Shown here one piece after another: positions 18,203 to 44,860 of a stretch of 64,000 nucleotides of DNA. The notes beneath the pieces were generated by a model, which was given only the letters and a program-made list of their open reading frames with translations, had not been told where the DNA came from and did not search any database. The stretch's first letter is position 1. Each line of letters opens with the position of its first letter. Origin of the DNA: Candidatus Anderseniibacteriota bacterium (GTDB taxonomy: Bacteria; Patescibacteriota; Andersenbacteria; UBA10190); the NCBI GenBank assembly GCA_016197005.1, contig JACPWO010000001.1:474544-538543 (forward strand), written 5' to 3'. The position numbers and the translations under genes are program-made.

Positions 18203-18408
18203 GATCAATACGATCCTTAACGGGTTGATACAATCCAAACAAAGAACACGCACTATTCTCAGTCAAAGTTCCAGACCAAAAGTGGTCACAGAGAATGTGC
18301 CCTCTTTTTTGTTTTAGGGGTCATGATCGTTTAACAATTTGCTACGGAATTATACGTTAAATTACGTTCTAGTCTGCGTATTTATACGCGACTACAAACG
18401 TCTTTCTA

Positions 18409-19878
<1,470 letters not shown>

Positions 19879-20118
19879 AGGGAGAAAACTGACGTTGTGT
19901 CGTGGTTAACCAGACACAACGCCCTAGAGGTCGACTTTGTCACTTTGACAAGGCTTGCTCGTAAAGAGCCGCGGAGAGCATATCCTCCACGAAAAACATG
20001 TGATATGCAACAAATAGAAAGACTACTTTGTAGTCGCGTATAAGAACGTAGAACATAGGCCGCCCTTAGGGCGGCTTTGTGTTGCAAAAGATACATTTTA
20101 AGGGTTAAATGGCACTAC

Positions 20119-20191
20119 GCGCGTGTAGCTCAGTGGTTAGAGCACCACACTGATAATGTGGGGGTCGAAGGTTCGATTCCTTCCACGCGCA
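20119..20191 (+). tRNA. tRNA-Ile (anticodon GAU)
   Basis: Acceptor GCGCGUG/CACGCGC+A73, anticodon stem CCACA/UGUGG loop CUGAUAA; near-identical to tRNA-Val at 5231. Confidence 0.9.
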
Positions 20192-20233
20192 CAAACAAAT
20201 GCACCTTCTGAACCTTTACCAAGGATCTATTAA

Positions 20234-20626
20234 ATGTCTAAATCTAGGCCAAAAACAAAGTTAGTTCGCTTTGGTCAGTATTTACAAGATTTACGGATAA
20301 CTAGAAAAAAGGGCTCTCAAAGAAAGGTTGCTACTGCCTTGAAATCACAAGGTCATCAGGTAACACAAGGCGCTATTGCACAGTATGAAGGGGGGCTGGT
20401 CACAAACCCGCATTACGAATTGCTCTCCGCCCTAGCACGACTCTACGATGAGCCATACGAAAACATGATCGTGCAATTAGTTGCCGATAAATACAAAGTG
20501 AAACCGCCTCCTGAGCAATTATCAGGTAGTTCTCTCCCAGTTCGCCCTGCGATTCGCTTGGAATTTCGAGACATCGACAGTTTGCGCGAAGCTGGTGAGT
20601 GGTTCTTCAACAAGATGCGACAGTGA
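20234..20626 (+). CDS. XRE-like helix-turn-helix DNA-binding protein
   Basis: N-terminal basic region followed by HTH-like segment (QRKVATALKSQGHQVTQGAIAQYEGG); 130 aa. Confidence 0.5.
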   Translation: MSKSRPKTKLVRFGQYLQDLRITRKKGSQRKVATALKSQGHQVTQGAIAQYEGGLVTNPHYELLSALARLYDEPYENMIVQLVADKYKVKPPPEQLSGSSLPVRPAIRLEFRDIDSLREAGEWFFNKMRQ

Positions 20627-20642
20627 GACTGTTACTTCAGCG

Positions 20643-20675
20643 CCCTCGCAGGTAAAACTGCGAGGTTTTATTTCC
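20643..20675 (+). terminator. Terminator-like hairpin (CCCTCGCAG-GTAAAA-CTGCGAGG then TTTTATTT)
   Basis: 8-9 bp stem and T-rich tail just after the HTH gene stop. Confidence 0.4.
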
Positions 20676-20712
20676 TGATTACTCATTCTTAATTACCAGT
20701 TACTATTCACTT

Positions 20713-22149
20713 ATGACACTGCCACCAGAAGTTCAATCTGCCCTGAAAATACTCCACGATGCTGGCTTTGCCGCTTATGGCGTCGGTGGTGGCGTACGGG
20801 ATTTGCTTCTGAATAAAAAACCAAAGGACTGGGACGTTACAACGAATGCCAAGCCTGAGGAAATTCAGAAACTATTTCCAAAAAGTTTTTATGCCAATCA
20901 GTTTGGGACCGTCACTATTCTCACGACGAGCGAAGATCCTTCTCTAAAAGAAATTGAGATTACAACGTACCGGTCAGAAAAAGGATACTCGGACCAACGC
21001 CATCCCGACGAAATAGCATTTGTTTCAAACTTAGAAGAGGACTTGGCTCGTCGTGACTTCACCATTAATGCAATTGCTCTCGACGAAGAGACAGTGGTTG
21101 ATCCTTTCGATGGCCAAGCTGACCTGGCAGGCAAACTGGTGCGAGCAGTTGGCAACCCGAAGGAACGGTTTGCGGAAGATGCGCTGCGTTTGTTACGAGC
21201 AGTGCGCCTCGCAACTGAACTTAACTTTGAGATAGAACCAAAAACACTCGCCGCTGTTACACAATATGCTCCCGCTATTACCGCCGTGTCGCATGAGCGG
21301 GTACGAGATGAATTAATAAAACTGGTAAAGAGTGACTATCCGGAAAAGGGAATGAATCTTCTCAAAGAGACAGGGCTCTTAGCGCTTATCCTCCCCGAAG
21401 TTGCTGAGGGTATTGCCGTCGGACAAAATCGTCACCACATTTATACCGTCTTTGAGCATAATATTAAGTCACTCCAGTACGCGGCTACGTACAAGTACCC
21501 CTTTCACGTCCGTCTAGCTGCTCTTCTTCATGACATCGGTAAACCGCGTACGAAACGATTCGATAAAAAGATTAATGACTATACGTTTTATGCCCACGAT
21601 ATTGTTGGATCACGCATGGCGGAAAAAGTATTGAAGCGTCTTAAGTTTTCGAAAAAGATGACCGACACTATAACGCATTTAGTTCGTCATCACATGTTCT
21701 ATTACGACGTTGGCAAAGTTACTGAGGCGGGCGCCCGGCGCCTGCTGCGACGAGTCGGCAAGGAACACTTCGACGATCTCATCAAGCTTCGCATTGCTGA
21801 ACGTAAAGGCTCGGGCGTGCCCAAGGCAGAACCATATCGACTCCGTCACTTGCAGTTCATGGTTGAAAAGGCCGCTCAAGAACCTATCTCCGTGAAGGAA
21901 CTTAAAATTACCGGTCGCCACTTACAGGAACTTGGCATGAAAGCAGGACCAATTTTTGGTGGTATTTTGAATGCTCTCCTCGCCGAAGTACTAGAAGATC
22001 CAATAAAAAATACGAAAGAATATTTACTCAAACGTGCAGTGGAGCTTAAGGATAAAAATCCTGATGAACTTAAAAAATTAGGTGAGGTAGCGGCGCAAGA
22101 AGAAGAATTGAAGCGTGAGGAAGACATTAAGAAAAAGTATCGGGTATAA
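20713..22149 (+). CDS. cca: CCA-adding enzyme (tRNA nucleotidyltransferase) with HD domain
   Basis: Pol-beta NTase head GVGGGVRDLLLNKKPKDWDVTT, RRDFTINA motif, HD-domain histidines (LLHDIGKP, HDIV). Confidence 0.85.
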   Translation: MTLPPEVQSALKILHDAGFAAYGVGGGVRDLLLNKKPKDWDVTTNAKPEEIQKLFPKSFYANQFGTVTILTTSEDPSLKEIEITTYRSEKGYSDQRHPDEIAFVSNLEEDLARRDFTINAIALDEETVVDPFDGQADLAGKLVRAVGNPKERFAEDALRLLRAVRLATELNFEIEPKTLAAVTQYAPAITAVSHERVRDELIKLVKSDYPEKGMNLLKETGLLALILPEVAEGIAVGQNRHHIYTVFEHNIKSLQYAATYKYPFHVRLAALLHDIGKPRTKRFDKKINDYTFYAHDIVGSRMAEKVLKRLKFSKKMTDTITHLVRHHMFYYDVGKVTEAGARRLLRRVGKEHFDDLIKLRIAERKGSGVPKAEPYRLRHLQFMVEKAAQEPISVKELKITGRHLQELGMKAGPIFGGILNALLAEVLEDPIKNTKEYLLKRAVELKDKNPDELKKLGEVAAQEEELKREEDIKKKYRV

Positions 22150-22156
22150 TAAAGAC

Positions 22157-22408
22157 ATGTCTTTTGGATCCTTCATCTTTGGTTTTCTTATTATGATCGT
22201 TGGTATGTTTATGGTTATCCGCACCAACTGGTTCCTGGAAAACTTGGGTGATCTTGGTTCTATGATTGGTGTCTACGATAAATCCTGGCTCAGCTGGAAA
22301 GCCTTTGGTGTTTTTCTCATCTTCCTCGGGTTCTCAATTGCTTTTAGTTTATTCACGATCCTGATAAAGGCAACGATCGGCCAACTCTTTGTCTTTGGCG
22401 GATTGTAA
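22157..22408 (+). CDS. small 3-TM membrane protein, hypothetical
   Basis: 84 aa, hydrophobic helices; first internal ATG after the cca stop chosen. Confidence 0.4.
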   Translation: MSFGSFIFGFLIMIVGMFMVIRTNWFLENLGDLGSMIGVYDKSWLSWKAFGVFLIFLGFSIAFSLFTILIKATIGQLFVFGGL

Positions 22409-22409
22409 G

Positions 22410-22480
22410 TGGACCTGGGGAGAATCGAACTCCCATCCCCCGGATGCAAACCGGGTGCTCTGCCACTAAGCTACAGGCCC
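22410..22480 (-). tRNA. tRNA-Ala (anticodon UGC), opposite strand to the rRNA genes
   Basis: Acceptor stem with G3:U70 identity pair, anticodon stem CCCGG/CCGGG loop UUUGCAU, T-arm GGGAG-UUCGAUU-CUCCC, discriminator A. Confidence 0.9.
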
Positions 22481-22521
22481 TTGGTATCAACTTTGAAGCA
22501 GTATGCCTAAAGGCGTTGCTT

Positions 22522-22551
22522 TTGACAACACACGTATTTCTGCGCTATAAT
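22522..22551 (+). promoter_or_regulatory. sigma70-like promoter (TTGACA -18- TATAAT) for the downstream membrane-protein gene
   Basis: -35 TTGACA 22522-22527; perfect -10 TATAAT 22546-22551; GAGAGGAGG RBS before ATG 22616; the -35 region is a near-palindrome (TTTGACAA) that could also serve a minus-strand promoter for tRNA-Ala. Confidence 0.5.
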
Positions 22552-22615
22552 AATTTCAGATACGAGACCGATTTTCCTTCGAAATTAATACTACGAGAGG
22601 AGGTGTTACGAGACT

Positions 22616-23317
22616 ATGGCTGTAAATTCATCATTCGGTACGTGGACTGACGCTGTTGTCACGTCGTTAACAGATTTGTGGCTTCAGTTTGTCTCTTTCA
22701 TCCCGAATTTAGTCGCAGCACTGGTTGTCTTTTTTATTGGATGGGCAATTTCTATCGCAGTTGGCCGTCTAATTGAAAAAGCTCTCGTTGTGTTGCGAAT
22801 CAATGAAGCATTTGGAAGTTTGCAAGGACTGAAGCAAGCAGTAGCTCAAGCAGGGCTTAAGCTCAACGTTGCTCACGTGGTTGGCGAAATCTTCAAGTGG
22901 TTCCTCCTTATCGTGACGGTACTCGCCACGACAGATATCTTGGGACTTAATGAAGTATCACAATTCTTGCGATCAGTATTGCTTTATATTCCGAACGTAG
23001 TAGTAGCCGCACTCATCCTCGTAATTTCGGTGGTGCTGGCAAACTTCGTTTATCGAACAGTACTCGCAAGCGTCGAAGCAGCTGGCTTTACCAGCGGCGG
23101 CGCAGTTGCCTTAGTAAGCAAATGGGCGATCATCATCTTCGCTATCTTTGCTGCTTTGCTCCAATTGAATGTAGCGACGCCTTTGATTCAGACATTCCTA
23201 ACTGCCCTCTTCGCCATGATCGCCATCGCTGGCGGTCTAGCGTTTGGCTTAGGTGGCAAGGAACTGGCTGCCAAATGGCTTAAGAAGTTCGAACAAGACC
23301 TTTCTGGACGTAAATAA
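22616..23317 (+). CDS. Multi-TM membrane protein with repeated conserved TM-helix motifs (MscS N-terminal-like)
   Basis: 233 aa, ~6 TM helices with internal repeat character. Confidence 0.45.
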   Translation: MAVNSSFGTWTDAVVTSLTDLWLQFVSFIPNLVAALVVFFIGWAISIAVGRLIEKALVVLRINEAFGSLQGLKQAVAQAGLKLNVAHVVGEIFKWFLLIVTVLATTDILGLNEVSQFLRSVLLYIPNVVVAALILVISVVLANFVYRTVLASVEAAGFTSGGAVALVSKWAIIIFAIFAALLQLNVATPLIQTFLTALFAMIAIAGGLAFGLGGKELAAKWLKKFEQDLSGRK

Positions 23318-23337
23318 TAACGACTAGAAAAACAAAA

Positions 23338-23366
23338 AACGGTGCCTGCAGTAGGGCCGTTTTTTG
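23338..23366 (+). terminator. Imperfect terminator-like hairpin followed by TTTTTT
   Basis: AACGGTGCC-loop-GGGCCGTT then T6, 20 nt after stop. Confidence 0.4.
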
Positions 23367-23382
23367 CGTTTTAAGGCTCCTG

Positions 23383-23410
23383 TTGACAGCTTTTGCAGGT
23401 TATATATAGT
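23383..23410 (+). promoter_or_regulatory. Candidate separate 23S rRNA promoter (TTGACA -16- TATAGT)
   Basis: -35 TTGACA 23383-23388; -10 TATAGT 23405-23410; ~355-nt leader to 23S 5' end. Confidence 0.5.
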
Positions 23411-24382
23411 GTCTATTAGCTATATGCAGAAAGCTTTTAACTGCAAGACCCCACGAAGCGGCTAGGCCGAAATCTTTTCGAGCCCACCAAAACCGCTTCC
23501 TCTGGACAAGCGGTTTTTTAGTAGCCGCTACAACACAAGCCATCGATAGAATAATGGTTCTCAACAATTATTCCTCTGTGGCTTGTTTGATTGAACACTG
23601 CCAATTGAATAAGCAATATCATTGCAATTGAACGATCACCAATAGTAGTAATTAGAAATCAAAAACAAGGAGCGATGTTGATCAGCGCTTGGGGCGCGGA
23701 TACGCATCGCTAGCTATACAAAAATAGCAAAGCATGCAGCTCATGACGGTGTGAATGAAATTCATACACCGTAAGGGTATACAGGTGGATGCCTTGGCAA
23801 TGGACGACGATGAAGGACGTGGCAGGCTACGATAAGCTGCGGGGAGGTGCCTAGCAACCGGCGATCCGCGGATGTCCGAATGGGGAAACCCGGCTTTGTG
23901 AATAACGAAGTCACTTTCTTACTGCAAGGTAGGATAGAGTAAACCTAGCGAACTGAAACATCTTAGTAGCTAGTGGAAAAGAAAAGAACGATCTTTGTTT
24001 CTCTTTAGAATTCCGTTCTCTCTTTCCCGTTTCCTGCAAAGGAAATTGGATTTGGGAGAACTGGTAATTTTACTGTTGAAGACAACGATTACATTCCCTT
24101 AGTAGTGGCGAGCGAAACGGGAACAGCCCAAACTTACATTTATGTAAGTGTTGTAGGGTATCGTTATATAGATAAGAGATATGTGCCTAGTAGAACGGGC
24201 TGGAATGCCCGGCCATAGAAGGTGAGAGCCCTGTAAACGAAAGGTATATTTCTTAACTTACGATATTCCTGAGTAGGGCGGGACACGTGAAATCCTGCCT
24301 GAACCCGGGAGAACTATCAAAATCCTCTGTGTTTTGGCTTCGGCCAGAACATAGTGGATCTCCCAAGGCTAAATACGACCAT

Positions 24383-24429
<47 letters not shown>

Positions 24430-25866
24430 GGAAGGGGAATGAAATAGACCTGAAACCGTATACCTACATCGAGTCGGAGGCTGCTCGCAAGAGCGGCTGA
24501 CGGCGTGCTTTTTGCAGAACGAACCACCGAGTTCGCTGTACACGGCTTAGGTTAAGTCTCATTCGAGACGAAGCCAGAGCGAAAGCGAGTGTTAATAGCG
24601 CGATTATGTCGTGTGCACGAGACCCGAAACCAGGTGATCTACCCATGAGCAGGGTGAAGTGTCGCGAAAGCGTACATGGAGGCCCGAACCGGTTGGCCGT
24701 ACAATACCATCGGATGACTTGTGGGTAGGGGAGAAATTCCAATCGAACCTGGAAATAGCTGGTTCTCGCCGAAATAGCTTTCGGGCTAGCCTCGTATAAT
24801 GAACTAATCAGTGGTAGAGCACTGCAAGGGATCTTCCGTCCTTTTGGATGGGGACCCTAGCAAACTCCGAATGCTGGTTAGGAATGTACGGGAGTCAGAA
24901 CGCGGGGGCTAAGCTCCGCGCTCAAAAGGGGAACAGCCCAGATCGTAATTTAAGGTCCCTAAATCTTACCTAAGTGGGAAAGGTAGTGGGATTGCTAAGA
25001 CAGCCAGGCAGTTGGCTTAGAAGCAGCCACCTGTTAAAGAAAGCGTAACAGCTCACTGGTCAAGCGATCCTGCGCCGAAAATGTAACGGGGCTCAAGGTA
25101 AGTACCGAAAATACGGAGTATTGTCTTTTAAGACAAAATTGGTAGGCGAGCGTTTCAGTCTGCGTCGAAGGTGTACCGTGAGGTATGCTGGAGCGGCTGG
25201 AAGTGAGAATGGTGGTATGAGTAGCAAGACACAAGGTGAGAGTCCTTGTCACCGAAAGCCTAAGGTTTCCTGGGCAATGTCGATCATCCCAGGGTTAGTC
25301 GGTCCTAAGGCGAGGCCGAAAGGCGTAGTCGATGGACAGCAGGTCGATATTCCTGCACCGTCTATAGCGTTCACAAGGCTTGACGGATCGTTAGAGCATG
25401 TCAGGACATATGACTTATCCTGCAGCAACTATTAGACAGAGTGTTTTGGTAAATCCGGACACTTGTTACGTTGAAAGTTGTTGGGCGAGCGCGGCCTTCG
25501 GGCCAAGCCGCTATATGGGAAAACGGTCCCCGGAAAAGCGTCGTGTGATTTCCGCTATGGGCGTCCGTACCGCAAACCAACTCAGGTAGGCAAGTGTGAG
25601 AGTACTAAGGTGATCGGGAGAAACCTCGTTAAGGAACTCGGCAAAAAAGCAGCCGTACGTTCGCAATAAGGCTTGCCCTGTCTTTATGGCAGGGCCGCAG
25701 CGACTGATCTCTGGCGACTGTTTAACAAAAACACAGGTCCCTGCTAACTCGTAAGAGGATGTATAGGGGCTGACGCCTGGCCAGTGTCGGAAGGTCAATC
25801 CTGGGGGTGAAAGCTCTCAGGCCAAGCCCCGATGAACGCCGGCCGTAACTATAACGGTCCTATGGT

Positions 25867-26166
25867 AGAGGAATTTGGCCACGATACGTCGTGGACTTTG
25901 CTGCCATAGTAAAATTGAGCTATATGCTGGAAACTCTGGTGTACTTAAAGAGAAATCTGACAAGTGCAGCCGTCCATTAGGACGAGCTACCAGACAATCA
26001 GCAGGAAATCCGCAAGGAGATCCTCAGAGACTACACGCTCAACCCAACGTATAAATCTTTACGTTGCGGAAGATATAGTCCGATCTGCATGGCGACATGC
26101 AGAACTCTACAGAAATGGAGAGTCACGTAAACTTAACGAAAGTAGATAAGTACGTCGTAACATTCG
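25867..26166 (+). mobile_element. Group I intron (ORF-less, ~300 nt) in 23S at the site equivalent to E. coli ~L1917-1925 (GGTCCTATGGT | AGCGAAATTCC)
   Basis: Exon sequence on both sides reconstitutes the conserved ACGGTCCTA(A/T)GGTAGCGAAATTCC; upstream exon ends in U and intron ends in G; intron contains P7-like strands CAGAGACTACACG and AAGATATAGTCC. Confidence 0.75.
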
Positions 26167-26738
26167 AGCGAAATTCCTTGGCACGTAAGTTGTGTCCCGC
26201 ACGAATGGCGTCACGACTGGAGAACTGTCTCAACGAGGTACCCGGTGAAATTGCAATGTCGGTAAAGATGCCGCCACCCTGCGGCTAGACGGAAAGACCC
26301 CGTGAAGCTTCACTACAGCTTGATATTGGCACGTCGAACTCAATGCTCAGTATAGGTGGGAGACTTTGAACCAGGTGCTTCGGCGCCTGGGGAGTCACAA
26401 TATGAGATACCACCCTTTGTGTTTAACGCGTCTAACGGCGCAGTGCAATCCACTGCCCGGACAGTGTCTGGCGGGTAGTTTGTCTGGGGCGGATTCCTCC
26501 TAAATTGTAACGGAGGAGCCTATAAGGTTACCTAGGTCCGGATGGAAATCGGACTCGTCGTGTAAAGGCACAAGGTAGCTTAACTGCGAGGCGTACATGC
26601 CGAGCAGGCGCGAAAGCGGAGCTTAGTGAACCGACCGTTCTCGAATAGAAGAGCGGAAGATCATCGGATAAAAGTTACTCCGGGGATAACAGGCTGGTCT
26701 CGCCCAATAGTCCACATAGACGGCGAGGTTCGGCACCT

Positions 26739-27093
26739 TAATTAAAATCGGGGTGCCCAAGGAGTGATCCTTGAAAGTCTGAGTTATAAGTCTTTCTGAA
26801 TAATTACAGATAAAAATCGAATAGTAAGTAAACCAGCTAAAAACGGTGAACTCTTACCTATCTTGATGCATTAAAAAGATAGAAGACAACGCCGTGGGAA
26901 GCATGAATCCAAGGTGGACTCATGCCCCGTAACGACTGACTCGAAAGAGGAGGCCCACAAAACACAGTTAAGGAAATCACTGTGGGCAAAAGGCTGGCTC
27001 TCACTAATAAAAAGATGTTATGGAATTTCCTACGACATCTCGTGAGATGAAGGCATAGTCTAATCTTCTTGGAAACAAGAAGTAGAACGACAG
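26739..27093 (+). mobile_element. Second putative group I intron (ORF-less, ~355 nt) in 23S at the site equivalent to E. coli ~L2500 (GGCACCT | CGATGTCGGCTC)
   Basis: Flanks reconstitute the conserved GGCACCTCGATGTCGGCTC; 5' exon ends in U and insert ends in G; insert contains GGCATAGTC (P7 3'-strand-like). Confidence 0.6.
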
Positions 27094-27577
27094 CGATGTC
27101 GGCTCAACCTATCCTGGAGGGGAAGCACCTTCCAAGGGTGTGTCTGTTCGCCACTTAAAAGGTTACGTGAGCTGGGTTCAAACCGTCGCAAGACAGGTTG
27201 GACCCTATCTGTCGCAGGCGTGGAAACTTGAGGAGCGTCCACAATAGTACGAGAGGACCTTGTGGGACCGACCTCTAGTGTACCAGTTGTCCCGTTCTGG
27301 GGCATCGCTGGGTAGCTATGTCGGGCTGGTGATAAGTGCTGAAAGCATCTAAGCACGAAGCCCACTCCAAGATCAGGTTTCAATAACGAGACTCCTAGAA
27401 GACTACTAGGTTGATAGGCAGGAGGTGTACGCGCAGTAATGCGCTCAGCCGACCTGTACTAATGTTCCAGTTGTATGATTCTTACCACCGACATGAGCAA
27501 ATTGCTTTGTTAATAGCTAGCGATGCGTATTTACGCAGTCGTTTAATTAATGATATTGCGTCGTTTCAATTCAGAGA

Positions 27578-27694
<117 letters not shown>

Positions 27695-27719
27695 TTTTCT
27701 GAATTGAAACCCTTCAAAC

Positions 27720-27748
27720 AAACCGCGCTATGCGGTTTGTTTTGTTTG
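27720..27748 (+). terminator. Rho-independent terminator after 5S (AAACCGCG-CTAT-GCGGTTT then GTTTTGTTTG)
   Basis: GC-rich hairpin and T-rich tail. Confidence 0.6.
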
Positions 27749-27767
27749 TGTATAGTATGATCGGATT

Positions 27768-28700
27768 ATGTATATCACATATACAGAAAACTCACAGGCA
27801 CTAGGAAAAGCTTTAGTAAAGCGCTTAAAAGGCGCCGTTTTGCCAGTGGAGCGCCGGCAGTTCGCCGATGGTGAACGATACCTGCGACTTTCTGTACCAG
27901 ATGCTACGACTCTGGCGGGCGAAGACGTCGTAGTTGTGGGCAGCACGCATACTGATGAAGATTTACTCGAGATCTATCGCCTTGGTTGCACGCTGGCGGA
28001 TATGGGTACCCGGCGGCGTATTTTTGTCATACCGTTTTTTGGATATTCAACGATGGATCGAAGCAAACGCGCAGGTGAATCGGTTGCAGCTAAACACAAT
28101 GCCCGTCTCCTGTCTTCTATCCCCAATTCAAATGAAGGCAACATGTTTGTGTTACTCGATCTTCATGAACCCGTCTTAGTCCACTATTTCGAAGGCAGTA
28201 CTGTTGCCATAGAAATTTCAGCAGAGGCGATGCTACTGGCAGCAATTCGAAAAATGAAATTAAAGTCATTTGTTTTAGGATCAGCTGACTTGGGTATGCC
28301 ACGACAAGTAATGAGTTTGGCCGAAAAATTAAACGTGCCGGTAGCACTGGTAAGTAAGGCGCGTGAATTTGAACATACACAAACACTCGCTTGCGTAGGA
28401 AATGTCCATGGTAACGATGTTGTTATGTACGACGACATGATCCGCAGTGGCAGTAGCCTCATTCAGGCTGCGGAAGCATACGAAGAAGCAGGGGCTAATA
28501 ATGTATATGCAGTTGTAAGTCATTTGGCGTTAACAACGGAAAACGTCCTTACTCAGCTAAAAAATTCTCCTTTAAAAGCGATTATTACAACGAATTCACA
28601 CCCAATGAGTCAATTGAAGAGCGTACAGAAATCCAAGCATATTACAGTACTGGATATATCTTCGGTGGTTGCCAACACCATTGAAAAACTCATATCCTAG
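27768..28700 (+). CDS. prs: Ribose-phosphate pyrophosphokinase (PRPP synthetase)
   Basis: N-terminal PRS domain pattern and PRPP-binding loop (VVMYDDMIRSGSSL). Confidence 0.85.
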   Translation: MYITYTENSQALGKALVKRLKGAVLPVERRQFADGERYLRLSVPDATTLAGEDVVVVGSTHTDEDLLEIYRLGCTLADMGTRRRIFVIPFFGYSTMDRSKRAGESVAAKHNARLLSSIPNSNEGNMFVLLDLHEPVLVHYFEGSTVAIEISAEAMLLAAIRKMKLKSFVLGSADLGMPRQVMSLAEKLNVPVALVSKAREFEHTQTLACVGNVHGNDVVMYDDMIRSGSSLIQAAEAYEEAGANNVYAVVSHLALTTENVLTQLKNSPLKAIITTNSHPMSQLKSVQKSKHITVLDISSVVANTIEKLIS

Positions 28701-28707
28701 TGTGACT

Positions 28708-28794
28708 GGACAGATGGCCGAGTGGTTGAAGGCGCGGCTCTCGAAAAGCCGTAGACGGGAAACCGTCTCGTGAGTTCGAATCTCACTCTGTCCG
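28708..28794 (+). tRNA. tRNA-Ser (anticodon CGA), class II with long variable arm
   Basis: GGACAGA acceptor, GCCGAGUGGUUGAAGGC D-arm, anticodon loop CUCGAAA, long extra arm, T-arm GUGAG-UUCGAAU-CUCAC, discriminator G. Confidence 0.85.
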
Positions 28795-28839
28795 CAAACC
28801 TAGACAAAACCCCTATTTTCCGGTAGATTTAGCCCCATT

Positions 28840-30801
28840 ATGGCTAAAGCAAAGATCAGAACAAAGAAGAATACCATCAAAATTGCAGACTTTTTGCAGG
28901 ATGCAAAGTTGACCGAAACTCGTCTCCAGTTCATCCTACGAGAGCTTAATATTCGCATGGCTGAAGGCCAGAAAAACCTTGATATACAAGAAGCGTCTGC
29001 GGTCCGGGGATGGATAAATGAGCAACGCCGTCGAGAAGAGCTCCGTAATAAAACGATTGTTTTGCCTTCAATTGTAAAAGCGCAAGAGTTAGCCAAACTC
29101 CTTGAATTACCAATTGGAAATGTGTTGAGCGCCCTCCTAAAGAATGGTGTCATGGCTAACCTTAATGATGACTTAGATTATGATACGGCAGCTATTATTG
29201 CGCAGGAATTAGGCTATCGAACCGAGGAAAGCGTAGAGGCGCTTGAAGAAGATGTACTGACGGGTGAAAAGTTAGATGAAATTTTAAAGAAAGAAGACCC
29301 AGCAAAACAAAAAGTTCGCCCACCAATTGTCACTATCCTAGGTCATGTCGATCATGGAAAAACGACTTTACTTGATTCCATTCGTCGAGAAAATGTCGCT
29401 GCGGGTGAAGCGGGTGGCATTACTCAGGCAATAAGTAGCTACCAAGCCCAGCACAAAGGACGAACGATTACGTTTATTGATACCCCTGGTCACGAAACGT
29501 TTGATTTTATGCGTCAGCACGGCGCTCAACTGGCAGATATTGCTGTTCTAGTAGTTGCAGCTGACGACGGGGTAAAACCACAGACAAAACAAGCAGCTCA
29601 ATTCGCAAAGGACGCAGGTATTCCAATTGTGGTCGCCATTAACAAAATGGATAAACCGGGAGCAAACGCTGACAAAGTGAAAACGCAGCTCGCCGAACAG
29701 CTCGACTTATCTCCAGAAGAGTGGGGCGGTAAAACAGTTATGGTACCGGTATCTGCGTTGAAAAAAGAAGGGTTAGATAACCTTCTTGAAATGATTTTAC
29801 TGACAGCAGACATTAATCCACCCAAGGCCGATCCAACTCGTCAGGCACTAGGAACAGTAGTAGAAAGTCGTCTCGATAAGAACTTAGGTTCCCTTGCTTC
29901 TATCCTCATTCATACCGGTACCTTACATGTTGGTGATCACGTAGCGGTCGGTCGATCCTCAGGACGCGTTCGTCGCATGCTGGATTGGCGAAACAAGAGC
30001 ATTCAAAAGGCTGGACCAGCTACACCAGTAACTTTAATTGGTCTACGAGACGTACCGACAACTGGTGATATTCTGCAGGCAGTTGAAGCTAAAGAGGAAG
30101 CAGTTCAAAAAGCTGCTCGGGGGCGAGGTCCACTCAAACGGATGGTGACTAGCAGTGATGATAAGCGACCAACGTTGGCACTCGTTATTAAAGCTGACTC
30201 TAAAGGATCGCTGCGTGCAATTGAACAAACAGTTACTGCGATGGTGCCACCAGAGATTCGCCTTTCAATTGTCCGAGCTGATGTTGGACCAATTTCTGAT
30301 TCTGACGTCTTAACAGCGCAAGCAGCGAAAGCTATTATGTACGGATTCAATGTAACGGTGGCCGGAATGTCTAAGAAACTGGCCGATAAAGAAGACGTGG
30401 TCATTAAAGTATTCGACGTTATTTATCGCCTCACGGACGATGTCCGACAAGAAATTGAAGAGCGACAACCGATGGATATAGTGCAAGAAGATACTGGTCG
30501 CCTGAAAGTACTGAAGGTTTTCTTCTCTACTCCAAAGAAGAAGATTATTGGTGGAGAAATTGCCGAAGGCTTTATTGAACCGAATTCTAAATTCATTATT
30601 CTGCGTGGCTCCGGCGATGCTCGAGAAGAAATTGGTCATGGCACCATTCAAGAATTACAGCGTGAACGACAGAAAATTACCAAAGGACAAATGGGTGATC
30701 AGGTAGGTATGACAGTTGAAGGTAAAGGGAAGATAAAAGAAGGCGACGTGCTCAAAATTTACGTTGAGAAAAAAGTGAAGCGTGTTCAAGGTAAAGTGTA
30801 A
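28840..30801 (+). CDS. infB: Translation initiation factor IF-2
   Basis: G1 GHVDHGKTTLLD, DTPGHE, NKMD motifs; beta-barrel C-terminal domains. Confidence 0.95.
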   Translation: MAKAKIRTKKNTIKIADFLQDAKLTETRLQFILRELNIRMAEGQKNLDIQEASAVRGWINEQRRREELRNKTIVLPSIVKAQELAKLLELPIGNVLSALLKNGVMANLNDDLDYDTAAIIAQELGYRTEESVEALEEDVLTGEKLDEILKKEDPAKQKVRPPIVTILGHVDHGKTTLLDSIRRENVAAGEAGGITQAISSYQAQHKGRTITFIDTPGHETFDFMRQHGAQLADIAVLVVAADDGVKPQTKQAAQFAKDAGIPIVVAINKMDKPGANADKVKTQLAEQLDLSPEEWGGKTVMVPVSALKKEGLDNLLEMILLTADINPPKADPTRQALGTVVESRLDKNLGSLASILIHTGTLHVGDHVAVGRSSGRVRRMLDWRNKSIQKAGPATPVTLIGLRDVPTTGDILQAVEAKEEAVQKAARGRGPLKRMVTSSDDKRPTLALVIKADSKGSLRAIEQTVTAMVPPEIRLSIVRADVGPISDSDVLTAQAAKAIMYGFNVTVAGMSKKLADKEDVVIKVFDVIYRLTDDVRQEIEERQPMDIVQEDTGRLKVLKVFFSTPKKKIIGGEIAEGFIEPNSKFIILRGSGDAREEIGHGTIQELQRERQKITKGQMGDQVGMTVEGKGKIKEGDVLKIYVEKKVKRVQGKV

Positions 30802-30807
30802 CTCGTC

Positions 30808-31152
30808 GTGTCTCGCAGGATTGAAAAAATAAATAAGCATATTCAAAAAACGTTAGGCGAGATATTTCAGCGTGAGACTGACATCCCCCCCGACGTGTTA
30901 GTTACAATTTCTCGAGTTGATACAACCCCGAACTTGCAATCAGCTGCAGTTTGGCTGTATATTCAGCCACTTGAGCGCGGGGAGGATACCTTAGAACTAC
31001 TCAAGAAACAGTTGTATGATATACAAGGAGCGCTTAATAGAGCCCTACAAATGAGGCCTCTCCCGCGCATCACATTACGTTTAGACTTAGGTTCATACCA
31101 TGCCCAAAAGCTGGAAGAAAAACTGGATGAAATCAAAAACGCCGGGGACTAA
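30808..31152 (+). CDS. rbfA: Ribosome-binding factor A
   Basis: RbfA KH-like fold pattern; canonical position after infB. Confidence 0.85.
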   Translation: MSRRIEKINKHIQKTLGEIFQRETDIPPDVLVTISRVDTTPNLQSAAVWLYIQPLERGEDTLELLKKQLYDIQGALNRALQMRPLPRITLRLDLGSYHAQKLEEKLDEIKNAGD

Positions 31153-32125
31153 CCTCTTGGAGCCGTACCGCGAAACAGCACTAGATATTGCTGCCAAACT
31201 TCGGGCCAGCAAACGCGTGCTTATTGGTACTCATGAACATCCTGACGGTGATGCGCTTGGCTCAACGTTAGCCCTCCTCCATGTCCTTGCTATTCAAGGC
31301 AAACAGGTGACTGCCTACATTCCAGATAGTCCACCAGACTTCTTTTCTTTTTTGCCAGCATTTGAAAAACTAACAACACAGAAGCCTGACGTTGCTTCTT
31401 TTGATACTGTCGTGCTCTTGGATTACACGCAGCTGTACCGCACTCATCTGGAGGCAGAAGCCAAAGCGCATCCTAATACTATCGCGATTGATCACCATCA
31501 CGATAACCTTCAAGAAACGAATATCCACCTCATTGTCCCGGAAGCTGCTGCTACTGCCCAGATATTGTATGAGCTGTTTCAAGACACCAACACTCCAATT
31601 ACAAAAGATGTAGCAACCTGCCTTTTAACTGGTATTTTTACCGATACCGGCTCCTTCATGCACGACTCGGTAACGCCTGACATCCTGGAAATTGCCTCGT
31701 TCCTAATGGGAAGAGGGGCTCGCTTGTCTCACATTGCCCACGAAACCTATCAAAAGAAAAATCTTGCTGCCTTACATATTTGGGGACGAGCATTTTCTCG
31801 TATTATGCTCAGCAAAGAAACAGGCGCGGCTACCTCTATTATTACCTACAAGGACTTACAAGAATGTGGCGCCACCCTCGATGATTTATCTGGAGCCGTA
31901 AACATGTTAAATACACTCCCAGATACAAAATTTGCTATGCTGCTCGTAGAATTTGAACCGGGAAAAATAAAAGGAAGTCTGCGCAGTGAACCACAAAAGG
32001 GTACGGATGTTAGTAAAATTGCTCATCGCCTAGGTGGTGGTGGCCACGTTCTGGCAGCTGGCTTTGAAGTACCAGGAACATTTGTACAACAGGATGGTAA
32101 ATGGCACATTAATCCAACTATCTAA
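31100..32125 (+). CDS. nrnA: DHH/DHHA1 phosphoesterase (NrnA-like oligoribonuclease/pAp phosphatase)
   Basis: DHH motifs GTHEHPDGDALGS, IDHHH; DHHA1 GGGH near C-terminus. Confidence 0.8.
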   Translation: MPKSWKKNWMKSKTPGTNLLEPYRETALDIAAKLRASKRVLIGTHEHPDGDALGSTLALLHVLAIQGKQVTAYIPDSPPDFFSFLPAFEKLTTQKPDVASFDTVVLLDYTQLYRTHLEAEAKAHPNTIAIDHHHDNLQETNIHLIVPEAAATAQILYELFQDTNTPITKDVATCLLTGIFTDTGSFMHDSVTPDILEIASFLMGRGARLSHIAHETYQKKNLAALHIWGRAFSRIMLSKETGAATSIITYKDLQECGATLDDLSGAVNMLNTLPDTKFAMLLVEFEPGKIKGSLRSEPQKGTDVSKIAHRLGGGGHVLAAGFEVPGTFVQQDGKWHINPTI

Positions 32126-32131
32126 GACCAT

Positions 32132-32927
32132 GAAATTTCTTGTCTTTGGCGATGTTGTCGGAAGAGTGGGCCGGAGCGCCATGACGAAGATCTTGCCGCA
32201 GCTCAGAAAAGAATATAAGCCGGACTCCGTTATTATTAACGTAGAAAACATGGCCCGCGGTAAAGGCATTACTCGCAACACCATGAACGAGGCTTTAACG
32301 TGGAAAGCCGATGTGTATACTACCGGCGATCATGCCTGGGATAACGATGGAGAGCTTGATGTATTGGATGACTTATCTATTCCTGTTATCCGCCCGGCTA
32401 ACTATCCTGCAAAAACACCAGGGCGAGGCTGGCACGTCTTTACAAATGGTGCCTGGCAAGTAGCCGTTATTAATCTTCAAGGTCAGGTTTTCTTCCGTAA
32501 CCACCCGCGTAGTCCTTTTGAGGCGCTGGATGAAATACTACAGAAGCCTGACGTTGCAGCTGCACATATTAAACTTGTAGATTTCCACGCTGAAGTGACT
32601 TCAGAAAAGCGTGCCTTCGGCTGGCATGCTGATGGTCGCGTCTCAGCAATGTGGGGAACTCATACCCATGTACCAACAGCGGATGCCCAAATTTTACCAA
32701 AAGGGACCGGATATATTAGTGACCTTGGCATGTGCGGTGGGCATAACACCATAATTGGTATGAAGCCAGATGGGCCCATGCGGATGTTCTTAACACAGAC
32801 AAAATCAAAATTTGAACCTCCAGAGGAAGGCTCAGCCGAGATTGGTGCCATGTTTATTGACATAGATCCCTCCTCAGGAAAGACAACTCATATTGAACAT
32901 GTACGTAGAATTGTGGAGAATGTATAA
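32132..32927 (+). CDS. ymdB: YmdB-like metallophosphoesterase (2',3'-cyclic-nucleotide phosphodiesterase family)
   Basis: MKFLVFGDVVGRVGR N-terminus, GDHAWD and GNHE-like metal-binding blocks typical of TIGR00282. Confidence 0.8.
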
Positions 32928-32960
32928 AGAGCTAAACTAAGGAACAATTTAACCTTCTCT

Positions 32961-33236
32961 ATGCTGAACAAACAATCTCTCATCGATCGCGTATCCGACA
33001 TTACTCGTAAGCCGAAGAAAGAGGTGGAGGAAATCGTAGATACTTTTGTTGAAACTATTATCGAGAAGCTTTCAATGGATGAAAAAATTAACTTATCCGG
33101 ATTCGGTGTATTTGAAGTACGAGAACGAAAAGGCCGTAAAGGAGTAGATCCTCGCACGCTTAAACCAACTCAAATTCCAACTGTTCGCGTTGCGAAATTC
33201 CGCCCAGGTAAAACTCTCAAAGAGGCGGTTAAATAA
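32961..33236 (+). CDS. hup: DNA-binding protein HU
   Basis: HU fold signature GFGVFEVRERKGRKGVDPRT, KPTQIPTVRVAKFRPGK arm. Confidence 0.9.
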   Translation: MLNKQSLIDRVSDITRKPKKEVEEIVDTFVETIIEKLSMDEKINLSGFGVFEVRERKGRKGVDPRTLKPTQIPTVRVAKFRPGKTLKEAVK

Positions 33237-33240
33237 CGTG

Positions 33241-33311
33241 TCGGGGTGCTGAGAATTGAACTCAGTCTACATGGTCCCAAACCATGCGTACTACCGGTAT
33301 ACGACACCCCG
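33241..33311 (-). tRNA. tRNA-Pro (anticodon UGG)
   Basis: CGGGGUG acceptor start typical of tRNA-Pro, anticodon stem CAUGG/CCAUG loop UUUGGGA (G37), T-arm CUGAG-UUCAAUU-CUCAG, discriminator A. Confidence 0.85.
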
Positions 33312-33352
33312 TATGCTTTGAGACTATAGCCAATAATGCCATACTGAGCAAC

Positions 33353-33739
33353 ATGACTGCGTCGTTTATTCTTTCCTTGATTATTTTGGCAGTTTCAGCT
33401 GGGTCTTTGTATTTTTTGATTCAGGCTGAAGGTGGGTACAAGGAAATTCCACGGCTTTTAAAACGTTCTGGACTTGAGATCAGTATTCCAACCCTACCAA
33501 CCTTGCCCAAGTCGACCCGTTCAAATCAATCTATCCCGCCAGAATTCCAATCTGGCACTTCTCGTTTCAGCCAAGGCTCATGCGCCACGGCTTCCGACTG
33601 TATGCCGGCGGGTTGTTCCGGAGAAGTATGTGGTAATAGCCCCGATGTAGTCACAACGTGTGAATACAGCGACTCCTTTCCGAATACCCAAGGGTATTCG
33701 TGCACGTGTCTACTCACAAAAGTGTGCGGGTGGAAGTAG
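33353..33739 (+). CDS. Small membrane-anchored protein with 8-Cys C-terminal domain, hypothetical
   Basis: N-terminal TM (FILSLIILAVSAGSLYFLI); C-terminal Cys pattern C-x5-C-x3-C-x4-C-x9-C-x13-C-x1-C-x6-C; ATG at 33353 chosen to avoid overlap with tRNA-Pro. Confidence 0.45.
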   Translation: MTASFILSLIILAVSAGSLYFLIQAEGGYKEIPRLLKRSGLEISIPTLPTLPKSTRSNQSIPPEFQSGTSRFSQGSCATASDCMPAGCSGEVCGNSPDVVTTCEYSDSFPNTQGYSCTCLLTKVCGWK

Positions 33740-33779
33740 GTTGAATATTTTCCCTTTTTCTCGTACAAAAGGATAACGC

Positions 33780-33850
33780 GCGGGTATAGTACAATGGCAG
33801 TACTCCAGTTTTCCAAACTGAGGACGCGGGTTCGATTCCCGCTACCCGCT
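33780..33850 (+). tRNA. tRNA-Gly (anticodon UCC)
   Basis: Acceptor GCGGGUA/UACCCGC + U73, anticodon loop UUUCCAA, T-arm GCGGG-UUCGAUU-CCCGC. Confidence 0.85.
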
Positions 33851-33947
33851 CTTACGCAAACATATACTTGAGTAAATACTCGCTCAGCTATTTCTCTACT
33901 TCCTTAGCACCGTAGGCGATGCCAATTCATTTCGGTATACTAGTGAC

Positions 33948-34364
33948 ATGAAATACGGTCGGTACGGCTGGAGCTATATTTTTATGAGTTGGGGACTAGG
34001 CATTGTCTTCTTGTGGATTGGACTTGATATCTTAGTACACCCAACCAACTGGATTGGATTCCTTCCAGAAAACATTCCGCTCGGTTTATCTCGGGAACGA
34101 GCATTGTTTTTGAATGGCATCGCTGATGCGGTTGCGGGTTCTCTTCTTATTCTCCACTGGTGGCCTCGCCTTATTAGTGGATATGCCATCCTTCACTTAC
34201 TGGGTATTTTAGTTACGAATGGAATTGATGCAGTGATTATTCGAGATGTGGGACTGCTAGGAATAGCCTTGGCACTCTTTTTCTGGCCCACTCATTACCG
34301 TCGCCATCGCTGGTGGAAATTCTGGCAACGCAGCTCTAGTAGTTATACAGAAGAAGAAGAATAA
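33948..34364 (+). CDS. 4-TM membrane protein, hypothetical
   Basis: 138 aa, hydrophobic helices, basic C-terminus. Confidence 0.45.
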   Translation: MKYGRYGWSYIFMSWGLGIVFLWIGLDILVHPTNWIGFLPENIPLGLSRERALFLNGIADAVAGSLLILHWWPRLISGYAILHLLGILVTNGIDAVIIRDVGLLGIALALFFWPTHYRRHRWWKFWQRSSSSYTEEEE

Positions 34365-34385
34365 ATAACTACTTTACGGAGATAA

Positions 34386-34414
34386 CAAAAATCCCGCCTT
34401 TTGCGGGATTTTTT
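34386..34414. terminator. Bidirectional terminator hairpin (AAAATCCCGC-CTTT-GCGGGATTTT) between convergent genes
   Basis: Stem flanked by A-run on one side and T-run on the other. Confidence 0.55.
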
Positions 34415-35720
34415 AGTAAAGACCGAGCGGGTTAACGGGAGTGCCGTTGCGACGAACCTCGAAGTGAAGGTGAGGACCGGTAGAGCGGCCAGTTGAACCC
34501 ATCTGACCAATGGCGGCGCCTTTCTCAACAGCCTGGCCCTTACTAACATAGAACTTATCCAAATGAGCGTAATACGTCGTCATACCACCACCATGGTTCA
34601 CAATAATGAGATTGCCGTATCCCCCAAGCCAACCCGTGAATTCAACTGTACCGCCAGCGGCTGCATACACAGCAGGACGAGAGCGGTTATCGATATCAAT
34701 ACCAGTGTGACCCCACTTGAAGTACTGAGAAATGTGTTTCGTTGTGGTTGGCCAGAGGAGACCAGAACCATCAGTTGGAGCGGGAGCAGGAGTTGGGCCG
34801 TCTTCGGCTTCACGAGCGACGCGAGTGTTACTTGATACAACAGAGGGGACAGCCTGAGCAGGGGTGCCATCTCCATCAGGAACAATAATCTTTTGCCCCA
34901 AAGATAATCGAGAACCGTCACCTAAGTTATTGTATTCAATGATGTCAGACTGTTTGGCATCATAATCAGCGGCAATGCCAGAAATAGTATCACCGTTGCT
35001 AACCGTATGTAGGACGCCTGTCACCGGTAAAATTGTTAAATGATCTCCCACCTTGATAACGTCTTTACTAGAAAGACCATTGGCCCACAAAATAGTATTT
35101 GCGCTGATATCAAATTGAGCGGCAATACTCGCAATCGTGTCATTTTCCTGAACGGTGTAGACACGAGGCTGGCTAGATTTTTGAGTAGAACCGGAAGGAT
35201 CACTGCCTGGTTCTGGAACGAGTGGAGAGAGGGGAGCTACTACTGCATTGCCACCAAGAGTTGCAGCAAATTCCACCTCTGGATCGTCAAATGTAATTAA
35301 CCCAACATCCGAAGCAATTGCTGCCGCGAGACGAGATCCGCCTGTTCCTGGAGCGTTGGTCTGTGCATACGTTACCGGATCGAGCGGTCCTTCAGTTATT
35401 TCCTCACCGGACATAAGACTGTACAAGAGAGAGTTGCGATCGATGGCTGCACCGGACTGACTTTGCCAAGCGAGGATACCAACTACCCCCAGAAAGACAG
35501 CGTGAGCAGCTGTGTTTTTAGATATATGAAATAGACGGCAACCTGAGCGGACAGCCAAAGCAATCGCCGCAGGCGCTTCTTTTAGAATTGAGCTTCCATT
35601 CGTCCTCTCCTTTTTAGGGGAAGATGTCTGGGGAGATAGTAAAATAGCAATACACCAAGGATGAGATGTTTGTAGTTTGGTGTGTTTGATGTTTGAGGAC
35701 TTGTCAGTGGTTCCTGACAA
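34413..35720 (-). CDS. M23-family metallopeptidase with two LysM domains
   Basis: LysM blocks (YTVQENDTIASIAAQF, HTVSNGDTISGIAADY); M23 motifs GHTGIDID, HLHFEV. Confidence 0.85.
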   Translation of the reverse strand: MSGTTDKSSNIKHTKLQTSHPWCIAILLSPQTSSPKKERTNGSSILKEAPAAIALAVRSGCRLFHISKNTAAHAVFLGVVGILAWQSQSGAAIDRNSLLYSLMSGEEITEGPLDPVTYAQTNAPGTGGSRLAAAIASDVGLITFDDPEVEFAATLGGNAVVAPLSPLVPEPGSDPSGSTQKSSQPRVYTVQENDTIASIAAQFDISANTILWANGLSSKDVIKVGDHLTILPVTGVLHTVSNGDTISGIAADYDAKQSDIIEYNNLGDGSRLSLGQKIIVPDGDGTPAQAVPSVVSSNTRVAREAEDGPTPAPAPTDGSGLLWPTTTKHISQYFKWGHTGIDIDNRSRPAVYAAAGGTVEFTGWLGGYGNLIIVNHGGGMTTYYAHLDKFYVSKGQAVEKGAAIGQMGSTGRSTGPHLHFEVRRNGTPVNPLGLY

Positions 35721-35834
35721 GATACAAGAAGGTATAGTACGCGACCGGGCGGGAGAGTCAACCTTGACAAATTATCAACTAATATTTGCTATAATGGCCT
35801 GGCAAAGCCTATCTCTGGGGTAAGGGTATATTCT

Positions 35835-37934: not shown

Positions 37935-38781
37935 TATGTTGCCAATTAACCTCACAGATAGTGACGCACTACGAGAGTTCCTGGGTCGACAAGGCATTTC
38001 ACCCAAGAAATCAATGGGCCAAAACTTTCTAGTAGCACCAGAAGTTGTTGAAGCAACAGTGGCAGCAGCCAAAGAGGGACCGCAACAGGTAACAGAGCTT
38101 GGTCCAGGCGTCGGTACTCTTACCCAAGGACTCGCGGCTAATAATTTTTCTATTAAAGCGATTGAAAAAGATGATGTGTTTGTGCAACTTCTCGCCAAAC
38201 AGTTTCCGGCTATTACGATTGTTCATGATGATTTAAAAAACGTCGATTGGTCCTGGCCCGACAAGTACCAAATAATTGGAAACATCCCATATAATCTTTC
38301 TGGTCTTATTATTCGCCGTATTACGGAAATGCAACCCGCTCCTGCTCAAGCAATTTTATTGGTTCAACGAGAAGTAGGGCAGCGCCTCCTCGCACAGCCG
38401 CCTGAAATGAGCCTTATGTCACTCGCGCTTCAGCTTTGGGGAACAGGAGAGCTGCTTTTACGAGTACCACGAAATTGTTTTTGGCCACAGCCTGAAGTAG
38501 ATTCCGCATTAGTATTACTGACGCCAGATAAGACATCAGCCCCAAAAGAACGAGAGGCTATTATGCAAATAGCTAAGCCCCTCTTCCAGCAAAAGCGAAA
38601 GCAGTTGGGTGGCAGCCTGCGTCGAATTCTTAATCTTTCTGCCACTGACATAGCAACGCTCTTAGAACAAATACATATTGATACTACTGCTCGACCGCAG
38701 GAACTTTCTCAACAACAGTGGCGCGCATTGCACCAGGCACTTGCATCTTCCTTACCCGAGATACCCCTTACGCCTCGCTAA
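37885..38781 (+). CDS. rsmA: 16S rRNA (adenine1518/1519-N6)-dimethyltransferase RsmA/KsgA
   Basis: GQNFLV and SAM-binding ELGPGVGTLT motifs, NIPYN catalytic block. Confidence 0.85.
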   Translation: MKDMALKQLAAQILPNNMLPINLTDSDALREFLGRQGISPKKSMGQNFLVAPEVVEATVAAAKEGPQQVTELGPGVGTLTQGLAANNFSIKAIEKDDVFVQLLAKQFPAITIVHDDLKNVDWSWPDKYQIIGNIPYNLSGLIIRRITEMQPAPAQAILLVQREVGQRLLAQPPEMSLMSLALQLWGTGELLLRVPRNCFWPQPEVDSALVLLTPDKTSAPKEREAIMQIAKPLFQQKRKQLGGSLRRILNLSATDIATLLEQIHIDTTARPQELSQQQWRALHQALASSLPEIPLTPR

Positions 38782-40338: not shown

Positions 40339-40347
40339 CTGCATCCA

Positions 40348-42895: not shown

Positions 42896-42901
42896 GAAGT
42901 C

Positions 42902-43801: not shown

Positions 43802-43815
43802 GCTATACTAACGCC

Positions 43816-44778: not shown

Positions 44779-44860
44779 GAAGAACTTTGGCAGGCCGGTA
44801 TCTTAATTAGGCTATAGCTTCTTTCTTTGCCAAACTCTGTTAGAATATGTCTAACTTGCT

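Follow-up and report, generated by a model that had tools for sequence, protein, structure and literature searches.

Group I introns inserted after position 1931 of the 23S ribosomal RNA (rRNA) gene in Escherichia coli numbering (site L1931) have been tabulated by Haugen et al. 2007 (PMC1995217) for Simkania, Thermotoga and Synechococcus; those introns are 654-700 nt long, with a LAGLIDADG gene of the single-motif type in every one. L1931 introns were described as very similar to subgroup IC1, P2 being absent, P5 complex and P7 of the classical IC1 form (PMC1995217), and L1931 counterparts were reported in green-algal chloroplast and Acanthamoeba mitochondrial genomes. For the Candidate Phyla Radiation (CPR), 45% of 968 insertions in 23S genes were found to be group I introns and 222 of the introns counted lacked an open reading frame (ORF); position 1931 is among the sites (23IS6-8, 12-14) where intron-encoded LAGLIDADG_1 genes cluster, and copies at one site with and without an ORF hardly differ apart from the ORF itself and are scattered over the CPR phylogeny (Tsurumaki et al. 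2024, PMC11270868). Brown et al., as cited in that work, found that CPR rRNA transcripts lose these insertions (PMC11270868). The present analysis concerns a 300-nt insert in the 23S gene of Candidatus Anderseniibacteriota bacterium, located in a 64,000-nt stretch of contig JACPWO010000001.1 (assembly GCA_016197005.1, positions 474,544 to 538,543), the whole of which is hereafter called the window. With a probability of roughly 0.9 we consider this insert a genuine ORF-less group I intron that self-splices from the 23S precursor at L1931.

Alignment with the E. coli 23S gene (MAFFT), in which the numbering was verified at U1911 within the helix 69 (H69) sequence, places a single 300-nt insertion at the junction that corresponds to E. 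coli U1931/A1932.

25867-26166, + strand: whole group I intron; single insertion after E. coli 1931, matched by RF00028 at 70 bits and present with the same sequence in an independent assembly

The intron is flanked by ACGGTCCTATGGT on its 5′ side and AGCGAAATTCC on its 3′ side. An AG is present at both junctions, so a shift of 0-2 nt is possible by alignment alone; the boundary 25867-26166 was chosen because only there does a U (exon U25866) precede the intron and a G (G26166) end it, and P1 and P10 fit this choice too. The 5′ exon bears a substitution, A1928U, and reads CCUAUGGU against the E. coli-type CCUAAGGU. An earlier note on this DNA had given the same coordinates, which the E. coli alignment reproduces exactly, along with an exon reconstruction that agrees exactly with the flanks read directly and a 300-nt insert following an exon U and ending in G, as found here; its site label, L1917-1925, was wrong. 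Two proteins encoded in the window, DnaA and IF-2, are assigned by NCBI to Candidatus Andersenbacteria, a CPR (Patescibacteria) lineage, in two assemblies. There is one rRNA operon in the window (16S 18406-19876, 23S 23760-27482, 5S 27579-27695), and its 23S gene extends over 3,723 nt against 2,925 positions of the Rfam model because it holds two endonuclease-free group I introns (L1931 and L2500) and several short insertions.

Rfam family RF00028 (Intron_gpI) matches 25851-26102 over its entire length (model positions 1-253 of 253) with 70.0 bits, at a gathering score of 50, and E = 1.1e-15 across the whole 64-kb window. In the alignment to that model, CAGAGACTACACG at 26025-26037 falls on the J6/7-P7 consensus and AAGATATAGTCC at 26070-26081 on that of J8/7-P7′. 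The minimum free energy (MFE) of the insert is -96.5 kcal/mol, with z = -5.5 against 200 dinucleotide shuffles. The Intron_gpI scan that the earlier note had named as a check was thus run and scored above the gathering score instead of returning no match, and both of the P7-like strands noticed there match the RF00028 consensus. Its reading of the insert as an ORF-less group I intron in 23S holds, given the covariance-model match, a complete P1-P10, covariation and no endonuclease match. The elements of the structure are as follows.

25860-25866, + strand: P1 5′ strand CUAUGGU, the last 7 nt of the 5′ exon (E. coli 1925-1931); pairs with GCCAUAG at 25903-25909
25870-25876, + strand: GGAAUUU, putative distal half of an extended P10; exact reverse complement of AAAUUCC at 26171-26177
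25879-25894, + strand: P1-loop hairpin CCACGA-UACG-UCGUGG, from the MFE fold
25897-25909, + strand: internal guide sequence, with UUUGCU (25897-25902) for P10 and GCCAUAG (25903-25909) for P1
25915-25920, + strand: P3 5′ strand UUGAGC; 6 bp with GCUCAA at 26037-26042
25925-26003, + strand: P4-P5 domain, from the MFE fold; P4 at 25925-30/25998-26003, P5 at 25935-40/25989-94
25941-46/25962-67, 25949-51/25956-58 and 25968-75/25980-88, + strand: three arms of the P5 extension, from the MFE fold (P5a, P5b with a GAAA loop, and P5c)
26004-26023, + strand: P6, a 20-nt hairpin with a GCAA loop, from the MFE fold
26024-26036, + strand: J6/7 UCA, P7 5′ strand and J7/3 CAC, from the RF00028 consensus alignment
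26037-26042, + strand: P3 3′ strand GCUCAA, closing the P3/P7 pseudoknot, from RNAalifold and pair counts
26043-26069, + strand: P8 hairpin, from the MFE fold; a hairpin by RNAalifold in every family member, with compensatory changes
26070-26081, + strand: J8/7 AAGAUA and P7 3′ strand UAGUCC, matching the RF00028 consensus gAAGAUAUAGUC
26084-26155, + strand: P9 domain, from the MFE fold
26156-26166, + strand: 3′ tail CGUAACAUUCG with the GUAACA motif and terminal G26166; GUAACA, 3-6 nt and then G in most L1931 introns
26167-26177, + strand: 3′ exon AGCGAAAUUCC (E. coli 1932-1942), P10 partner by complementarity to the guide sequence

Most helices were recovered by MFE folding of the single sequence, and P1, with its splice-site wobble U25866·G25903, was independently predicted by RNAalifold. 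The P10 strand UUUGCU (25897-25902) adjoins the P1 strand on its upstream side and forms 6 bp with AGCGAA (26167-26172) of the 3′ exon. There is no P2: after P1, J1/3 (UAAAA) runs directly into P3. P4 and P5 are joined by AAAC (J4/5) and CAA (J5/4), and the extension of P5 differs among homologues. The A-rich J4/5 aligns to the RF00028 consensus, as does J8/7. In P7, G26027 and GACUA (26029-26033) pair with UAGUCC (26076-26081), leaving A26028 bulged; beside this bulge lies the putative guanosine-binding pair G26029-C26080, which aligns to the RF00028 consensus and whose role we assign on the model of the Tetrahymena ribozyme. The P9 domain consists of P9 (26084-91/26096-103, GCGA loop), P9a (26104-11/26116-23, GAAA loop) and P9b (26125-29/26151-55), the last being retained in close homologues. 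Two alternative pairings were discarded. An automatic choice of GUCGUGG in the L1 hairpin as the P1 strand (7/7 pairs, mainly wobbles) was dropped in favour of GCCAUAG on grounds of homology, and a long-range pairing via the UACGUCGU repeat, found in the L1 hairpin and again in the 3′ tail, was judged coincidental because the 3′ copy is conserved in homologues and the L1 hairpin sequence is not.

Such an architecture bears on the idea of an intervening sequence (IVS), which RNase III would excise with no rejoining of the ends, leaving the 23S rRNA fragmented. IVSs are simple extended hairpins replacing helix tips, whereas the insert breaks into conserved sequence, aligns to the group I model along its full length, folds into many helices, contains a guide pairing to both exons, belongs to a family of L1931 introns and shows no long perfect stem joining its ends in the MFE fold. 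The same 23S gene does have short extra segments near E. coli 228, 292 and 414, and some bacterial 23S genes, possibly those of CPR too, carry IVSs (PMC11270868). On balance we regard an IVS as highly improbable.

The group I structure was then evaluated on 12 homologous L1931 introns (MAFFT alignment), with P7 and P10 included as pseudoknots. Among these sequences 89.0% of cells are paired, compared with 32-41% when partners are slid by 1-3 columns, and 28 pairs are changed on both sides against a shuffle mean of 13.0; none of 500 shuffles attains any of the observed measures. Compensatory changes affect 5 of the 6 pairs of P3 (98.6% of cells paired), all 5 pairs of P5, 6 of the 8 pairs of P9 and all 7 of P9a, and P4 is 100% paired. 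Unguided RNAalifold on 6 L1931 introns found P1, P3, P4, P5, P6, P8, P9 and P9a, with 30 of 57 pairs compensatory. On the four closest homologues the same program mis-predicted P1, because three of the four have a U-U mismatch there, and the P1 supported by the wider family was kept.

Across the family 97.6% of P1 cells pair, and alignment columns 7 and 52 of this helix hold AU in 8 sequences and UA in 3. The carriers of the exon variant U1928, namely the window and loci L096 and L109, carry A at the guide position that is U in the other sequences, so the guide sequence has coevolved with the host's own A1928U substitution. A guide change that compensates A1928U would make little sense without selection on P1 pairing, and is to be expected if splicing is selected.

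Homologues were sought by a P7/J8/7 pattern scan with one genome per species, which gave at least 120 loci and at least 126 pattern matches. For at least about 40 of the 126 matches listed the 3′ flank lies at E. coli ~1932. Extraction gave 35 usable L1931 introns; those listed come from metagenome-assembled genomes (MAGs) of CPR, DPANN archaea, Proteobacteria, Actinobacteria, Acidobacteria and Planctomycetes. Other listed matches fall at further rRNA sites, including about 1917, 1923, 2500 and 2593/2604. ORF-less L1931 introns of 234-360 nt occur, among the matches listed, in Uhrbacteria, Chisholmbacteria, Daviesbacteria and Saccharibacteria MAGs, and ORF-less copies are likewise listed for proteobacterial, actinobacterial and acidobacterial MAGs. 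None of the genome-scan loci listed has rRNA exons more than ~77% identical to those of the window. Beyond the catalytic core, the L1931 family has in common a (GCU)GCCUUAG-UAAAA guide region, UAUAUGCUGG after P3, CUGCAUGGCGACAUGCAG as the P9 hairpin, a GAAA loop on the P9a hairpin and GUAACA a few bases before the terminal G, and the window intron carries all of these shared features. In several proteobacterial MAGs (L007, L059, L075, L094, L116, L106 and others) GACCAG/ATCACG stands before AACGGTCCTAAGGT in the 5′ flank of the L1931 intron, a pattern that suggests another insertion ending after 1917 and a 14-nt exon between two introns.

A metagenome scan for the host-type exon motif TATAACGGTCCTATGGTAG gave 120 loci, 101 of them without an L1931 insert and 18 with one. 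The closest homologues, ~71% identical to the window intron, are the metagenomic L191 (303 nt), L242 (365 nt) and L178 (424 nt). They share the periphery of the window intron: they start with AGAGGAAUUU, have a P1-loop hairpin at the corresponding position though of other sequence, contain AACUUAACGAA and carry the tail UACGUCGUAACAUUCG; the P1-loop hairpin, the P5c arm and the P9b arm with tail ACGUCGUAACAUUCG are lineage-specific and common only to these three. All three keep the guide GCCUUAG despite the exon CUAUGGU, with a U-U mismatch in P1 as a result, and the window has the compensating GCCAUAG. For the loci closest in rRNA, occupancy of the sites is as follows.

L242, rRNA identity 88%: homologous introns at L1931 and at L2500; contig ends before ~L2593
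L199, rRNA identity 87%: no intron at L1931 or at L2500; 759-nt insert at ~L2593
L191, rRNA identity 83%: intron at L1931, insert at L2500 and insert at ~L2593

Intron presence is patchy among close relatives. In L199 the 759-nt insertion is located close to E. coli 2593, ~93 nt further downstream than L2500, and that of L191 in the same position measures 768 nt.

The relatives and an independent assembly also speak to whether a foreign intron-bearing rRNA fragment was joined into the contig by mistake. Operons of rRNA are often misassembled in metagenomes, and other assemblies of the same organism break inside or beside the operon. However, contig JACOTL010000022.1 covers window positions 25573-38700 with 13,126 of 13,128 bases identical, both introns included and without any intron difference, and an independent assembly with identical introns argues against a chimera. 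Moreover, the guide sequence matches the host's own exon variant, and the nearest rRNA relative, L242 at 88%, has homologous introns at both sites. An assembly artefact is, in our judgement, scarcely credible.

The ORFs overlapping the insert on the + strand encode 59 aa (25875-26054), 61 aa (25964-26149) and 63 aa (26097-26288, reaching into the exon), and that on the - strand 48 aa; none has a Pfam match at E < 0.1, and neither LAGLIDADG nor GIY-YIG was found among them. The earlier note's statement that such an endonuclease is missing is in keeping with this result, and the two ORFs of its list (61 and 63 aa) are present, the 59-aa ORF having escaped it. In relatives of 590-770 nt the LAGLIDADG gene sits in the P6 loop: the ORF of L044, L038, L048, L089 and L117 lies between GGAAAGACU and GAAUCCUCAGAGACUA, and in L044 the motif region GFVDGEGCF follows GGAAAGACUAAAA. 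The P6 loop of the window intron is 4 nt long, and a P6 reduced to a minimal 20-nt hairpin leaves no room for an ORF remnant. Lacking its own endonuclease, the intron would be unable to home by itself; most likely it is an inherited copy that lost the endonuclease gene or never had one.

In the precursor rRNA the intron would fold as a group I ribozyme and excise itself by two transesterifications. The guide GCCAUAG would pair with exon CUAUGGU, so that P1 presents the U25866·G25903 wobble, and free guanosine, bound at G26029-C26080 of P7 next to A26028, would attack after U25866. The terminal G26166 would then occupy the guanosine-binding site of P7, with P10 holding the 3′ exon through UUUGCU/AGCGAA, probably extended by GGAAUUU/AAAUUCC across the inserted hairpin, and ligation of the exons would restore CCUAUGGU-AGCGAAAUUCC. 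This splicing chemistry is proposed from the established behaviour of the family, the evidence reaching as far as the fold.

For the putative extension of P10, the GGAAUUU/AAAUUCC duplex has a predicted energy of -13.2 kcal/mol (z = -5.4 against shuffles), and GGAAUUU and UUUGCU together could pair with 11 consecutive nucleotides of the 3′ exon, with the P1-loop hairpin between the halves. Other L1931 introns show similar complementarity between the distal 3′ exon and the 5′ part of the P1 loop (median z against shuffles -1.8), which is continuous in L144, L029 and L114; the sequences of L029 and L114 are consistent with tracking of the exon variant AAGUUCC. The likeness of the first bases of the intron to the 3′ exon could equally reflect competition between an extension of P1 and P10. 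A more ambitious proposal, in which a long (~11 bp) split P10 forms with AGCGAAAUUCC and a host-adapted, vertically kept intron has its removal tied to the folding of H69-H71 during assembly of the 50S subunit, seems to us very unlikely.

Several observations count against self-splicing as we propose it or against parts of it. P7 is invariant in the family and the genome scan had itself selected on P7, so that covariation is uninformative for this helix and neither supports nor contradicts it. P10 pairs in only 59% of cells of the family alignment, a low figure due in part to poor alignment of the 5′ guide region, and what speaks for the extended P10 is complementarity. In addition, the Simkania L1931 intron is reportedly unspliced, going by the title of Everett et al. 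1999, and a group I fold at this site would thus be no guarantee of removal. This last report favours the alternative that the group I fold is retained and forms an expansion of mature 23S rRNA near H69-H71. Set against it, the guide sequence compensates the host substitution A1928U, and P1, P10, the terminal G and all core helices are intact and, apart from the invariant P7, covarying, which implies selection on splicing. Position 1931 also lies in highly conserved sequence near the subunit interface, and the ribosome is unlikely to tolerate 300 additional nucleotides there; removal of CPR rRNA insertions from transcripts (Brown et al., as cited in PMC11270868) points the same way. We consider retention very unlikely and an intron that splices itself out of the precursor the better account of the insert.

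The other intron of this 23S gene, also ORF-less, comprises 355 nt at 26739-27093 and follows E. coli U2500 (L2500 in standard numbering, since the E. coli reference copy is one base short there). Its Rfam score of 45.6 bits is below the gathering score of 50. U26738 is the exon base before it and G27093 its last base. Pairing joins exon GGCACCU (26732-38) to GGGUGCC (26751-57), a U·G wobble included, and CGAU of the 3′ exon to AUCG (26747-50). Inserts of 303-352 nt are placed at L2500 in loci L242, L191, L165 and L235; similarity is extended only for L242 (73% over 207 nt), the other three giving short matches of 24-33 nt.

Relative to E. coli the 23S gene has several deletions as well, and the following further insertions.

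23990-24088 (99 nt): 23S insertion after E. coli 228
24152-24187 (36 nt): 23S insertion after E. coli 292
24316-24357 (42 nt): 23S insertion after E. coli 414
25513-25535 (23 nt): 23S insertion after E. coli 1578

These four short insertions (99, 36, 42 and 23 nt) have no Rfam match; they may be expansion segments or resemble IVSs. Between 16S and 23S lies a spacer of 3.9 kb (19877-23759) with the following contents.

20119-20192, + strand: tRNA-Ile(GAU)
20713-22149: gene of the CCA-adding/poly(A) polymerase family with an HD domain
22409-22480, opposite strand: tRNA-Ala(UGC)
22616-23317: 233-aa ORF with a mechanosensitive-channel transmembrane helix domain

Elsewhere in the window, ARAGORN identified a tRNA-Ile with a UAU anticodon at 5106-5180 on the - strand; such a tRNA is an uncommon bacterial way of reading AUA, replacing the lysidine-modified CAU tRNA. 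An SMC homologue at 11327-13537 has 736 aa against 1,181 positions of the NCBIfam model and matches it in two stretches, which suggests a much shortened coiled coil. Positions 38812-52454 hold a run of large ORFs (508, 599, 619 and 693 aa) without an NCBIfam match, with a VirB4-like conjugal-transfer ATPase of the CD1110 family downstream of them at 50601-52454; this region is possibly a gene cluster of the type IV secretion or pilus-like kind.

The importance of the L1931 intron is limited and lies chiefly in the correct annotation of the Andersenbacteria 23S gene, from which introns should be removed for rRNA predictors, primers and phylogenies. Guide/exon coevolution and patchy presence fit the published picture of intron gain, endonuclease-gene loss and intron loss in CPR, and neither opens a new question.

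Among described systems, the Tetrahymena LSU (large subunit) intron is the IC1 archetype. It is a nuclear intron of 413 nt at a different LSU site, with P2/P2.1 present. Its J6/7-P7 and J8/7-P7′ sequences, CACAGACUAAAUG and AAGAUAUAGUCGG, are close to those of the window intron, and the RF00028 consensus has the same motifs. In both introns P7 contains a bulged A and the P5 extension a GAAA loop, whereas the window intron lacks P2 and its outer P7 pair is G-C in place of the C-G of Tetrahymena. The Tetrahymena likeness drawn in the earlier note stands as far as L1931 introns are called very similar to IC1 (PMC1995217).

In Coxiella burnetii two group I introns occupy the same stretch of 23S, at other insertion sites and in another host phylum, and are likened to the window intron here by description. 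Cbu.L1917 is not known to carry an ORF. Cbu.L1951 is tabulated with a LAGLIDADG gene (PMC1995217).

The bacterial L1931 introns of Simkania negevensis, Thermotoga spp. and Synechococcus C1/C9, compared by published description, have the same site and appear to have the same architecture. The window intron seems to fit the P2-less, IC1-like description: it has no P2, possesses P5a, P5b and P5c and contains the P7 motif. Unlike those tabulated introns of 654-700 nt with LAGLIDADG, it is 300 nt long and without a gene. From the ORF-less group I introns of CPR 23S genes, which share its class and its host group (Candidatus Andersenbacteria belongs to CPR), it shows no difference in kind, its periphery being lineage-specific. 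Since ORF-less group I introns are already known to be common in CPR, the window intron is an ordinary new member of an already described kind.

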